DNA from: Minutocellus sp. GHC0000111
Lineage: Eukaryota
Length of the DNA: 64,000 nt
Assembly: GCA_977018835.1 (NCBI GenBank)
Contig: OZ361261.1
Span: 1,860,001 to 1,924,000 of the forward strand
Reading direction: 5' to 3'
Both the position numbers and the translations under genes were made by a program. Below, piece after piece: positions 9,483-13,204 of the stretch (the stretch's first letter is position 1; each line of letters begins with the position of its first letter). The notes beneath the pieces were generated by a model. It was not told the origin of the DNA, made no database searches, and saw nothing but the letters and a program-made list of their open reading frames with translations.

Positions 9483-10055
9483 CTATACAGCCACAGCTAT
9501 ACGTCGAAGTCTCGGAAAGAACTCCGACATAATTCTCTTCGACCAATGCTGACACTGCTCGTTGGTGTGCTGCAAAGCTGAGATTTCCAGAGCATACGGA
9601 GCCACCGCGTCAATGAAATCACTTGTGACATTATCACTCTTCTCAAATGTACCCGCCTGAAGCACTCCGTGAATTCCAGAAAGGAAGTGCGATGAAGTAA
9701 AGCCACGACCTTCATTATCTGGCTCATCAAATTGTCCTACATGTAGGGCGCTACAGAGCGATGCAACGACGCCCTCGTCGATGAGATTGTTCACATGTTT
9801 GGCCGATCCAACGTCCAGGTCGATGGCTACCGATTTGCCACCGACGACGTCGGTCGCTACATGAATCAGACTATTCTTGTAGTATGCCTCGCGAAGGTCC
9901 GAGCATGACGATCCGGCTCGCATGGCCTCGGCGTAGGAGAGGAAACGCATCGTGAGGGCCAAGGCGTCGACTGGCGCGTCCTTTAGGAGACCAGCACTCG
10001 GGGGTGCGGCTGATGCCGATGCCGATGCATCGGACGATATGGCCTCGATCGCCAT
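9483..10055 (-). CDS. Hypothetical protein with F-box-like N-terminal motif
   Basis: 190-aa ORF. LKDAPVDALALTMRFLSYAEAMRAGSSCSDLR resembles an F-box. Confidence 0.45.
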   Translation of the reverse strand: MAIEAISSDASASASAAPPSAGLLKDAPVDALALTMRFLSYAEAMRAGSSCSDLREAYYKNSLIHVATDVVGGKSVAIDLDVGSAKHVNNLIDEGVVASLCSALHVGQFDEPDNEGRGFTSSHFLSGIHGVLQAGTFEKSDNVTSDFIDAVAPYALEISALQHTNEQCQHWSKRIMSEFFPRLRRIAVAV

Positions 10056-10412
10056 TGTTTATTGCAGTATAGGATGATTCGGATACGGTACTTGCGCGAT
10101 GGGAGTGCGTCAAATTTGTTGGCGGCGGTAGGTAGGCAAGAACTTGGAGGAGACCACTGGAGGATTGACTGATTCTCGCAAGAAGATCGCACGAACTTCC
10201 GCGGCGCGTCTCGTGATTACTTGTGTCCGCTCTGATAAGACTGCCGAAGGAGACCACCCAGGGCAGCTGTAGAAGGCAAGTGCTAGGTATAATCACCTCA
10301 ATTGAATGGTATCGCTGAAAGGACGAGGCGATTCCACTCCACCCTTCGCATCTGGAGGTTGTGCCTCATCCGCTCATGCGCCTTCTTAATCTTGCTTGCT
10401 TGGTCGCTTGGT

Positions 10413-10564
10413 TAATCGAATTCTGCCAGGAATACGAATTCCCAATACTGCTAAAAGAATGCTACGGGACTCGCACCCGCACAACCGGTTAACTACTCAG
10501 CGCATTCAAGCACGGAAGGCAGTCTCTACTTATGAATGCTAAATTCCCCGGCTGATTTTGTCTA
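10413..10564 (-). repeat. LTR copy (3' LTR in minus orientation)
   Basis: TAATCGAATT...TTTTGTCTA on + strand; 150/152 identical to 10751-10902. Confidence 0.95.
10456..10507 (-). ncRNA. Putative 52-nt tRNA-like RNA in the LTR (second copy at 10794-10845)
   Basis: GAATGCG-20 nt-GCGGG/TGCGAGT/CCCGT-AGCATTC-T-TTT: acceptor-like stem, 5-bp T-stem with 7-nt loop, discriminator, then a U-run. Confidence 0.5.
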
Positions 10565-10631
10565 CTCCCCTTAGTGGCTGCACCCAGACTGTCTGGATCT
10601 GCCACTAACCAGGAAAATCTGCCTCCTCAAG

Positions 10632-10675
10632 GGAATCGAACCCGAGCTCCTCTCAGGTCATGAGCCACTCCGCTA
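10632..10675 (-). promoter_or_regulatory. RNA polymerase III type-2 internal promoter-like A and B boxes (degenerate tRNA-derived segment)
   Basis: A-box-like TAGCGGAGTGG (10675-10665), B-box GGTTCGATTCC (10642-10632), TTTT at 10617-10614. Confidence 0.55.
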
Positions 10676-10750
10676 ACGTCGACATTTACCTCAAACGCGA
10701 CCTCGCTGCAAGTGCTGCTCACACTGCGTGTCTCGCAGTAGCATTCTCCA

Positions 10751-10902
10751 TAATCGAATTCTGCCAGGAATACGAATTCCCAATACTGCTAAAAGAATGC
10801 TACGGGACTCGCACTCGCACAACCGGTTAACTACTCAGCGCATTCAAGCACGGAAGGCAGTCTCTACTTATGAATGCTACATTCCCCGGCTGATTTTGTC
10901 TA
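10751..10902 (-). repeat. LTR copy (5' LTR in minus orientation)
   Basis: Direct repeat of 10413-10564. Confidence 0.95.
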
Positions 10903-11221
10903 TGGTCCCCGCCCGGCGAGCAGGCGCCAAGCTTCCCCCCTATAAAAGGGGCTTTCCCTTTTTGGCGAGGATGGACGCTACATGTGTAGCCGAGGTCCTG
11001 GTGTCCTGGTGAAGGTTGCCTCGATCTTCTACCGGTAGCTAGATCTACTGTAGATCTACATGCACGACGAGTCGTTGGCTAAATCCACATCTCCAATGAT
11101 ATGATAGCAATTGCTACGGATAAACATAGGATACTAATTCCATAAGTTGCGATTTATGCTACAAATAAATGCAAATGCATGGAAAAAAAATCATTACCAT
11201 CATCATTCCTGCAAACGTCCA

Positions 11222-13204
11222 TCACTCTGCCGTCTTTTTCTTCTTCTTCCGCCGCCGAGCCTTTGCCGCCTCGGCCTTTTGTCGAAGCATTTCCATCTTT
11301 TCTGCTTTTCTCTTGGCCTCTGCAGCGGCAGCCTCTGCCTCTGCAGCGGCCTTGGCAGCCTCCTCTTCGGCTTGCCGTAATTCATCTTCATCGTCGACGA
11401 CAGTGTCGGCAGCATCCCAACCCTCTGGGACAAACTCCGATGCATCGGCTCCAGACTCCACGATGCCCATGACGGCACCGCTGTCTCTTTCAATCCCCGC
11501 AAAAGCTTCCACCTCGGCGTCAAACATGTTCAGTCCATTCTTGAAACGACGGCACGGTAAGCTCTGTAACTTGCCAATCGCATTGGTTCCTTCAACAATT
11601 ACTTCGAGACCATCTAACGGATCCACGGGTGGTGGCAACGGCGATTGGCCGGCTCCCTGAGCTTCGATATCAATTCCGCCACCGAGCTGCAAACCCATTG
11701 GCTCCATCTTTGACAGTATCGAATCAGGCCGGCGGATGAGCGTCAGACCGACAGTTGTGGGCTCTCCCGTACCACCTTTTTCTGCAATCGATGTGATCAT
11801 ACCGGCCTTGATCTTGCCAGCAGAACCAAGTACGTAGATGTCGTCACCAGGGATAGGTTGTTTCGAGCCACTCTCATCACTAAAAGGAGAGGTAGCATCG
11901 GCACCGAGCAACGAAGCAAGATCCATCATATTGTCGTCGCCCAGATCATCTGCCGGCGAAGTACCATAGGCATTATTATCCTCATGAAAGACCACCGAAT
12001 AGAGTGACCGAGGAATGCCCCTCTTGTTCTTGAGTAGCGCCGATATCGCTTCTTGGCCTAGATAGCACCCCTTGGTTTCATCTACTGCAGACTCAAGATG
12101 CAGCTCCAGCGGACTCGCCTTGGCTCCCACACCAATTGCTGCATTTTCGCCACCAGCACCATCATCCTTATCGTTGTCTGGATCGATGTCACCAGTCATT
12201 TCACGGCCATATGCCGGCCATCCACCTTCAATGCGCAATGTTTCCCATTCAAGAGGACCAAGCTCCACTGGTGCCTGATCATCGAACTCGGCAGTGAGGG
12301 CATCCCAAATGCATTGAGCTGTATCTCCATTACCTGTTCCAGATATCACGAATGTGTACCCCACACATACACATTCCGGCAAGAAAGTAGACGGCAAAAT
12401 TATGATATCGGTGCCATCGTCGGTCGATACTCTGGTGCACTCTCCACGTTGTGGCAGCGTGAAGCCCACCGACAAATTCAGATTGGACGTCACATATCGC
12501 ATTACCGATTCCTCTACATGGCTCAGCTTGGTCGCGGCCACAGTGATAACCCGAGTGGGTGCCTTGGATGTGTCCATCATGTCGGTCAATTTCACACCGT
12601 CCATGGGAAACACGTAGGGGTCCAACCGATTGAACAACGTCGATCCACCATGACCAGGTGACGTGAGGAGATATGCTTCGGATGATTCATCATCATCGTT
12701 CTCACTCAGGCTAGGAAAGAGTGAAACTGATATTCTGTCAACAGTCCGACCTCTTGGCGTCAACAAACAAGAGTCCACCAGCTTGCCATGGCCGTCACTT
12801 TTGGTGCCACCTTCCAAATCAAAGGAATTGCTCAACTTGCCCTCCAAAAATTGCTGGACGCCGCTACCATCGACTTTCACAACTCCCACACCAAACTCGT
12901 CGTGGGAGGTAAAGTCGATGCACACCCCGTTGGGTGAACGGAGTGCCGATCGGACGGCCTCACCGCGCATCCCGGCGGGCAGCTCTCGGGGGAATGTCGA
13001 TGCCAGTTCATCTGACTTTGCTTGGGCGCTGTTGTTGTGGGAGGTACTAATATCGGATGACGCACGAAGCGCAAGTGATGAGATCGGAAGACGATGGTTC
13101 GGCCTGCATGTGCTCGTTTTGGGAGTGAAGGAAAAAGCAGCACATGTTATTATTTGGGCCCCAACGAGAGCCAGAAAAGCGACGCTTTGGGGAGGGAAGG
13201 CCAT
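11222..13204 (-). CDS. YgfZ/Iba57-family folate-dependent protein (GcvT fold), probably plastid-targeted
   Basis: Signature KGCYLGQE; LLTPRGRTVD; ETLRIEGGWP. N-terminal signal peptide ending CAA-F followed by a Ser/Thr-rich transit-like segment. Confidence 0.88.
   Translation of the reverse strand: MAFPPQSVAFLALVGAQIITCAAFSFTPKTSTCRPNHRLPISSLALRASSDISTSHNNSAQAKSDELASTFPRELPAGMRGEAVRSALRSPNGVCIDFTSHDEFGVGVVKVDGSGVQQFLEGKLSNSFDLEGGTKSDGHGKLVDSCLLTPRGRTVDRISVSLFPSLSENDDDESSEAYLLTSPGHGGSTLFNRLDPYVFPMDGVKLTDMMDTSKAPTRVITVAATKLSHVEESVMRYVTSNLNLSVGFTLPQRGECTRVSTDDGTDIIILPSTFLPECVCVGYTFVISGTGNGDTAQCIWDALTAEFDDQAPVELGPLEWETLRIEGGWPAYGREMTGDIDPDNDKDDGAGGENAAIGVGAKASPLELHLESAVDETKGCYLGQEAISALLKNKRGIPRSLYSVVFHEDNNAYGTSPADDLGDDNMMDLASLLGADATSPFSDESGSKQPIPGDDIYVLGSAGKIKAGMITSIAEKGGTGEPTTVGLTLIRRPDSILSKMEPMGLQLGGGIDIEAQGAGQSPLPPPVDPLDGLEVIVEGTNAIGKLQSLPCRRFKNGLNMFDAEVEAFAGIERDSGAVMGIVESGADASEFVPEGWDAADTVVDDEDELRQAEEEAAKAAAEAEAAAAEAKRKAEKMEMLRQKAEAAKARRRKKKKKTAE

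Follow-up and report, generated by a model that had tools for sequence, protein, structure and literature searches.

A diatom TRIM with a remodelled tRNA-Ala(AGC) gene in its long terminal repeats, a candidate source of an element-made, CCA-tailed primer

Anatomy of the element

The window, as the whole stretch of 64,000 nucleotides from Minutocellus sp. GHC0000111 is called here, is gene-dense eukaryotic DNA, and the Rpn11 that it encodes falls in a 90%-identity cluster with named members from Cyclotella and Cyclostephanos. Its sole long repeat is a 152-bp pair whose copies lie 338 bp apart and delimit a 490-bp element on the minus strand (Table 1). With two LTRs, a length below 1 kb, no coding function (no ORF of at least 120 aa lies inside the 490 bp), a primer-binding site (PBS), a polypurine tract and a 4-bp target-site duplication (TSD), the element is a young TRIM in a diatom. 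The LTRs are identical at 150 of 152 positions and differ only at LTR 23 and LTR 88, counted along the element. Their termini (window 10902 and 10413) read TA...TA instead of TG...CA.

Strict A and B boxes are confined to the internal region, the B box of the LTR having one mismatch. The internal boxes are perfect and 22-23 nt apart, and such a pair arose in 1 of 20,000 shuffles. The surrounding stretch (window 10675-10614, minus strand) resembles a second, shortened tRNA-derived unit, with nearly equal isotype scores for Ala (z 4.2) and Asp (z 4.1).

Table 1. Features of the TRIM and its flanks, in window coordinates
Feature	Position	Strand	Remarks
Left TSD (ACCA)	10903..10906	minus	
Whole TRIM	10413..10902	minus	490 bp; non-autonomous LTR retrotransposon without notable coding frame
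5' LTR	10751..10902	minus	152 bp; G at 10880, A at 10815 (T-stem mismatch)
tRNA-Ala-derived unit, 5' LTR	10794..10887	minus	z 5.5, best of 48
Mini-tRNA copy, 5' LTR	10794..10845	minus	T-arm weakened
U5 stretch	10772..10781	minus	Predicted to pair with the T-loop and to unfold the mini-tRNA in read-through RNA
Internal region	10750-10565	minus	Between 5' LTR and 3' LTR
PBS	10738..10750	minus	Starts TGG (nt 1-3), immediately after the 5' LTR
6-bp hairpin (predicted)	10723..10739	minus	Directly behind the PBS
Internal consensus A box	10665..10675	minus	Sequence match
Internal consensus B box	10632..10642	minus	T4 after it at 10617-10614
Polypurine tract AAGGGGAG	10565..10572	minus	Adjoins the 3' LTR
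3' LTR	10413..10564	minus	152 bp; T at 10542, G at 10477 (T-stem intact)
Remodelled tRNA-Ala(AGC) gene, 3' LTR	10456..10549	minus	LTR 16-109; z 6.6
Mini-tRNA, 3' LTR (candidate primer precursor)	10456..10507	minus	52 nt, anticodon-less; LTR 58-109
T4 run	10453..10456, also 10794-10791	minus	Candidate leaky RNA polymerase III stop, putative function
Right TSD (ACCA)	10409..10412	minus	

Origin of the repeat from a tRNA-Ala(AGC) gene

Both LTRs were aligned to a panel of 48 distinct tRNAs, mostly bacterial, for which 30 of 94 bin tRNA matches count as background. The Ala(AGC) query was a T. pseudonana-type gene from two metagenome bins (L125 and L126), whose copies, from different bins, are identical over 159 bases. 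Behind L126 stands a 3-kb contig (L151, 405-2591 of G001:C198) that was assigned to a bacterial bin and carries 12 tRNA genes, including Ala(AGC), Ile(AAT), Val(AAC) and an intron-bearing Tyr; it is likely eukaryotic contamination of that bin.

Ala(AGC) aligned best to both LTRs, with z 6.6 and 5.5 for the 3' and 5' copy and 0 of 300 shuffles as good, against a panel median of 1.6-1.7 and runners-up at 5.2 and 4.9. A tRNA-Gly origin (Gly(TCC) came second, z 5.2) and a 5S origin of the Cassandra kind were considered and set aside, Ala(AGC) ranking first for both LTRs. LTR 16-109 is colinear with tRNA-Ala(AGC) from position 1 or 2 to position 70. Because both LTRs align best and colinearly to Ala(AGC) 1-70, each of them carries a whole, expanded and remodelled tRNA-Ala(AGC) gene. 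The first-pass annotation of this locus had described only a tRNA half; the tRNA-derived stretch begins 42 bases further upstream. What it had taken for a 5' acceptor strand is the old anticodon loop and stem of tRNA-Ala, from which the new strand differs by one substitution among the paired positions.

The end of the gene has been rebuilt. Positions 71-73 of the tRNA-Ala gene (the genomic CCA) are lost from the LTR, with a T-run in their place, and 3 nt have been gained between the T-stem and the acceptor strand. The distance from the T-loop to the end is 13 nt in gene and LTR alike, this register having been restored because the LTR gained the 3 nt. CCA added to LTR 109 recreates the end of a tail-less tRNA-Ala.

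Complementarity between the LTR and the PBS

LTR 100-109 (10465-10456 in the 3' LTR) is the exact complement of PBS nt 4-13 and leaves the TGG of nt 1-3, which has no Watson-Crick partner in the LTR, for an added CCA. The LTR end plus CCA matches the PBS at 13 of 13 positions, as the first-pass annotation had claimed, and its reading of the sequence at minus-strand 10507-10456, of the TTT that follows and of the PBS at 10750-10738 was accurate. Among 20,000 dinucleotide shuffles of the LTR, a 10-nt complement in this CCA-leaving register occurred 5 times, and any 10-nt LTR match to the first 18 internal bases 44 times. On the U5-PBS stretch, the calculated duplex energy is -25.0 kcal/mol for the LTR end with CCA and -17.1 kcal/mol for the LTR end alone, versus -11.1 and -10.9 kcal/mol for the L126 tRNA-Ala without and with its tail; the corresponding pairing lengths are 13 nt for the LTR end with CCA and 8 nt for the diatom-type (L126) tRNA-Ala.

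The same annotation had recognised no host tRNA behind the acceptor stem. This did not hold: CCA-less tRNA-Ala(AGC) complements PBS nt 1-8 to 1-10, depending on the species, and the LTR derives from it. Within the 48-tRNA panel, Ala(AGC) has the longest PBS complement (8 nt, the next 6 nt). Because tail-less tRNA-Ala complements the PBS and the LTR derives from that gene, 5-7 of the 10 LTR-PBS matches are, on the alignment, shared by descent. Bases specific to the LTR alone match PBS nt 11-13 when compared with the F. cylindrus type of tRNA-Ala, and nt 9-13 when compared with L126. A mature tRNA-Ala would call for two TGG units, of which the PBS has only one.

In cis, LTR 100-111 is predicted to form a helix of 10 Watson-Crick and 2 G-U pairs with the PBS, at a probability of 0.26-0.98 in 5'-end constructs. 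A second PBS complement, of 9 nt, lies at LTR 23-31 of the 5' LTR (10880-10872, minus strand) and is 8 nt long in the 3' LTR; it is situated in the old D-arm region and can also pair with LTR 57-63.

Comparison with tRNA ends and searches for relatives

A mature primer that pairs with PBS nt 1-7 must end in TT(C/T)TCCA. The published tRNA sets of T. pseudonana, F. cylindrus and E. huxleyi (PMC4156623, supplement file 5) were searched by term for such ends. TTCTCCA occurs 13 times in these sets, always inside Ala(AGC) and ahead of the added tail, and TTTTCCA once, in a broken Ser gene, so that the terms searched in the three sets gave no mature tRNA end that pairs through PBS nt 1-7. Without its CCA, the tRNA-Ala(AGC) listed there complements PBS nt 1-10 in F. 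cylindrus, 1-9 in T. pseudonana and 1-8 in E. huxleyi, the last value being shared by L126. Comparison of the PBS with host tRNA ends, proposed in the first pass as a check and made here on these three algal proxies, gave no mature end that fits and a tail-less Ala that fits over 8-10 nt. In the host itself, tRNA-Ala could match the PBS over a longer stretch than in the proxies.

A pattern joining the LTR acceptor strand to the PBS was found at 0 loci in metagenome contigs, and two scans of prokaryote genomes gave 0 loci and at least 120 loci, with 0 of the 120 listed being similar or repeated. A 15-mer occurred at 67 viral loci, none with similarity past the motif save for one 30-nt piece (L019, E 0.02). 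The mimic's end was present at 13 prokaryotic loci, one of which is a tRNA (Arg-CCG, L006); it has the same 7-nt acceptor strand but carries G73 and does not fit the PBS. At 44 metagenome loci with this end, inspection by eye revealed no tRNA at the match, a weak negative since the diatom coverage of the collection is uncertain, and ARAGORN returned only implausible calls with long introns.

Predicted fold of the mini-tRNA

In the 3' LTR, LTR 58-109 is predicted to fold as a three-way junction with pair probabilities of 0.93-1.0, made up of a 6-bp acceptor, a D-like hairpin, a 6-bp T-arm with a 7-nt loop, and a U discriminator. Its top half counts 12 bp (11 Watson-Crick, 1 G-U; probability 0.94-1.0). 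When the 96 upstream bases were shuffled while the 13 terminal ones were kept, the T-stem and 6-bp acceptor recurred in 7 of 100,000 trials, and in 0 of 100,000 when the T-loop consensus was added. The top-half geometry of the first-pass annotation therefore exceeds chance (0-7/100,000), but its stems are of 6 bp each, the base that it had left unpaired pairing with T 10481. Nor does the mimic extend equally to both repeats: the 12-bp top half belongs to the 3' LTR, and the T-arm probability is 0.94-0.96 there versus 0.04-0.09 in the 5' LTR, because A at 10815 (LTR 88) makes an A-C mismatch that breaks the T-stem. For the 5'-LTR piece taken alone (A88), the predicted values are about 0.6 for the acceptor and below 0.1 for the T-arm. 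Summed DNA depth for G88 and A88 was 107 vs 2 in run X10 and 829 vs 201 in run X1, which hints weakly at an intact T-stem as the usual state of the family.

T-loop position 55 is G, not T. By folding energy alone the mini-tRNA does not stand out significantly (z -1.31 in the 3' LTR, +0.19 in the 5' LTR), ARAGORN called no tRNA in the window or the element, and Rfam gave no tRNA and 2 chance lncRNA matches over three scans. The fold is predicted only with a leader of at most 8 nt and a trailer of at most 9 nt. In a transcript from LTR 16, the old Ala acceptor is the more stable by 2.5 (G88) to 4.7 (A88) kcal/mol, and CCA on that form fits the PBS, by eye, over at most 7 nt. One and the same substitution makes the new acceptor perfect and fills in a rival helix with LTR 26-32. 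With U5 present, the predicted acceptor probability drops to 0.00-0.06, and pairing between U5 and the T-loop reaches 0.99 in a construct of LTR 58-152 with A88. The human CCA-adding enzyme favours purine discriminators and disfavours U, according to PMC4477674.

RNA and DNA contigs

Contigs from 4 of 20 sequencing runs (X1, X3, X4 and X10) were compared by 31-letter words (k=31); such contigs show no ends, strand or level, and tips and bubbles are dropped from them. The RNA runs X3 and X4, which come from two studies, each contain one contig of 368 nt (338+30) in which the 338-nt unit forms a closed cycle, corresponding to window 10478-10901, with 0 and 1 differences and contig depths of 284 and 274, respectively. 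Neighbouring contigs have depths of 4-7, and the adjacent flanks of the element have no contig. Both cyclic contigs carry the 5'-LTR allele at LTR 88, and that of X3 the 3'-LTR allele at LTR 23. Given the word length, the cycle would need RNA over LTR 58-88 of the 5' copy that reaches about LTR 87 of the 3' copy. It fits an R region of LTR 58-112 and likewise a tandem array, a circle or a further copy bearing these alleles, and is a hint at most.

In X1 and X10, 10374 is joined to 10936 with 39 other letters between them, an allele without the element. The locus is polymorphic for the element, though with diverged flanks rather than as a clean empty site. A second haplotype in X1 and X10, about 8% diverged (10000-10375 and 11219-11400), is without the element; in X3 and X4 the RNA contigs nearby follow this haplotype. 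X1 and X10 also hold a variant element with 5 other letters over 10690-10814 and a 3-base insertion behind 10712, which the RNA contigs of X3 and X4 do not show. Loose ends at 10563-10565 and 10754, present in all four runs, join the LTR to at least 3 other flanks, two of which occur in the RNA runs as well; these may be further copies or solo LTRs. Among the 40 differences listed, none lies in the mini-tRNA or the PBS. One X10 variant has a T-run shorter by one.

Priming of reverse transcription

We tentatively favour, with a confidence that falls a little short of even, the reading that the element primes reverse transcription with its own repeat-derived short RNA, which the host would tail with CCA and which would then match the PBS at 13 of 13 positions. 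This reading builds on what the sequence itself presents, namely the anatomy, the tRNA-Ala origin, the loss of the terminal CCA, the 3-nt gain and the complementarity to the PBS. RNA polymerase III would start at LTR 58 or shortly upstream of it, or else the 5' part would be removed, and the internal B box may, as a speculation, serve the 5' LTR, whose own B box has G at 55. Some of the transcripts would terminate at the T4 run, giving a mini-tRNA of 52-55 nt that folds like an anticodon-less tRNA (52 nt); trimmed at its 3' end and provided with CCA, it would have an end identical to that of CCA-less tRNA-Ala. Transcripts that read through would be the genomic RNA, with the mini-tRNA as their R region, and in them U5 or the PBS would unfold the mimic and so protect the genome from processing. 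RT and integrase would be supplied by an autonomous element.

As for its evolution, the likely ancestor had an ordinary tRNA-Ala PBS with two TGG units and captured the gene of its primer. A mimic shifted by 3 nt would have annealed one TGG inward, and the PBS would then have taken on the mimic's sequence because it is recopied from the primer in every cycle. Such recopying during plus-strand synthesis is described in the account of priming in PMC7175516, and a primer made by the LTR would therefore be expected to draw the PBS after the LTR. The loss of the CCA accords better with a role that depends on the tail than with a fold-back, since the cis helix would have been better had the genomic CCA been retained. 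The private primer of the first-pass annotation gains from the failure of mature algal ends at PBS nt 1-7 and from the duplex energies (-25.0 vs -11.1), as also from the above-chance LTR-PBS match and geometry, the PBS bases matched only by the LTR, the conserved 13-nt register and the predicted fold of the 3'-LTR piece, while its status is still that of a proposal. The cyclic contigs would also suit it, as the trace of an RNA terminally redundant over LTR 58-87. Against it stand, in the models, the need for short flanks, the more stable old acceptor and the competing helix with LTR 26-32; the G at T-loop position 55 and the fact that the mismatched 5'-LTR allele is the allele of both RNA contigs; and the non-significant folding z, the ARAGORN and Rfam blanks, the U discriminator and a possibly longer match by the host tRNA-Ala. 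A shade more tentative is the fuller scheme of a fourth LTR priming route, in which a domesticated primer gene, its register shifted by 3 bases, would yield a private anticodon-less primer, read-through would make it the R region, and U5 would switch the fold off.

Three other readings were weighed. It is unlikely, though not far-fetched, that host tRNA-Ala(AGC), either CCA-less or with its CCA looped out, is the primer and that the LTR holds a captured copy of the Helenus type, with a match due to descent and perhaps kept by a fold-back that covers the PBS. The complementarity of this tRNA to PBS nt 1-8 to 1-10, the derivation of the LTR from the same gene and the predicted LTR-PBS helix all agree with such a course, and Drosophila mdg3 is reportedly a precedent for a tRNA primer shortened at its 3' end. 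It does not account, however, for the 3-5 LTR-specific matches (chance 1/64 to 1/1024), for the removal of precisely the CCA or for the regained register of 13 nt, and it offers only 8-10 bp (-11 kcal/mol with L126). From a full-length tRNA-Ala primer one would expect a PBS rewritten to two TGG units, given the recopying described in PMC7175516; the classification of PMC6317226, with its three primer types, does not list CCA-less priming; and complementarity between LTR and PBS was not found for Helenus in the relevant part of Kojima's study (PMC10886601). Improbable, in turn, is cis self-priming after the manner of Tf1, by which LTR 100-111 would pair with the PBS, be cut and be extended without CCA, the TGG being what is left of an earlier tRNA-Ala PBS. 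The sections on priming of PMC6317226, PMC4600332 and PMC7175516 treat self-priming from the 5' LTR as an established class, and the helix of 10 Watson-Crick and 2 G-U pairs, predicted at up to 0.98, would suit it. But Tf1 has its complement in the RNA's initial 11 nt, whereas the diatom element has it at the 3' end of a tRNA-like unit, ahead of a T-run; R would have to lie past LTR 109, with the RNA reading through T4 in both LTRs; and neither the tRNA top-half geometry nor the loss of a genomic CCA that pairs better would be accounted for.

A retrozyme-like alternative we regard as very improbable: the tRNA-like fold would be a cut signal in both LTRs that frees a 338-nt monomer or circle, with priming a separate matter. 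Besides the cyclic contigs, their depth in two studies and their bare flanks, the alleles of X3 (5' at LTR 88, 3' at LTR 23) are those that cleavage between 24 and 88 would leave, none of 100 shuffles folds as well as the circular monomer, and retrozymes, as characterised in PMC5680766, likewise have 4-bp TSDs and abundant circular RNA. Yet a linear RNA with at least 30 nt of redundancy, a tandem array or a one-LTR DNA circle would assemble into the same contig, the mimic is not predicted to fold in long RNA, and the match to the PBS would go unexplained.

Comparison with known systems and significance

Among known elements, Helenus and TRIMp3 are close in plan, being TRIMs below 1 kb with a PBS, a polypurine tract and a tRNA-derived sequence in each LTR, and the TSD of animal Helenus is 4 bp, as in the diatom element (PMC10886601, sections on these families). 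Helenus is there reported from fungi, animals and one plant, and is primed by host tRNAs (Kojima 2024, PMC10886601). Compared with the Helenus features given in that source, the diatom element has a tRNA-derived LTR but lacks conserved A and GGTTC B boxes in it: Helenus keeps GGTTC in box B, whereas the LTR box B of the diatom element is altered, its intact A/B pair is internal and it ends in TA...TA. A complementary match of the LTR's tRNA-like stretch to the PBS, sought for Helenus in PMC10886601 and reported there as not found, amounts to 10 nt in the diatom element. The supplement of that paper contains no diatom names and no copy of the element's PBS, and the main text of Maumus 2009 no PBS data.

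Tf1, Tf2, Tj1, Tcn1 and TAR resemble the diatom element in having a PBS that complements their own LTR and, if the favoured reading holds, in using the RNA of the element as primer (passages on self-priming in PMC4600332, PMC6317226 and PMC7175516). The Tf1-type primer, as depicted there, is the first ~11 nt of the RNA, freed by RNase H, without a tRNA fold or added CCA; in the diatom element, by contrast, no templated base faces three of the PBS positions, and the match lies at the end of a tRNA-like unit. Its cyclic contigs suggest an RNA that includes LTR 58-88, upstream of the match. Cassandra and Ajax share with it a small-RNA gene in the LTR, at which transcription has been proposed or shown to start and end, but their LTRs are 5S-derived and their primer is a host tRNA (PMC10886601, passages on these elements). 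Retrozymes too are non-autonomous LTR elements with a 4-bp TSD, an RNA structure in each LTR and a cyclic assembly of monomer length; they differ by a hammerhead ribozyme and a tRNA-Met PBS (descriptive part of PMC5680766). Rfam, at E values up to 10, matched no ribozyme family in the diatom element.

Small tRNA mimics matured by the tRNA-processing enzymes and tailed with CCA are familiar from mascRNA and menRNA, which are released from polymerase II lncRNAs; we know of no priming role for them. The LTR primer types recognised in the overview of PMC6317226 are three: a mature tRNA, a half tRNA and a piece of the element's own 5' end. The literature searched, which excludes most subscription journals, gave no report of an LTR-encoded, CCA-tailed primer. 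If the favoured reading is true, an element-encoded, host-tailed tRNA mimic would be a fourth type, and with the donor gene identifiable, the steps from a host primer to a private one would be legible in the sequence. Should CCA-less host tRNA-Ala prove to be the primer instead, the element would still be unusual, as a case of priming by a CCA-less tRNA and as a Helenus-like element in diatoms, a group outside the text and supplement of Kojima's study as searched (PMC10886601).
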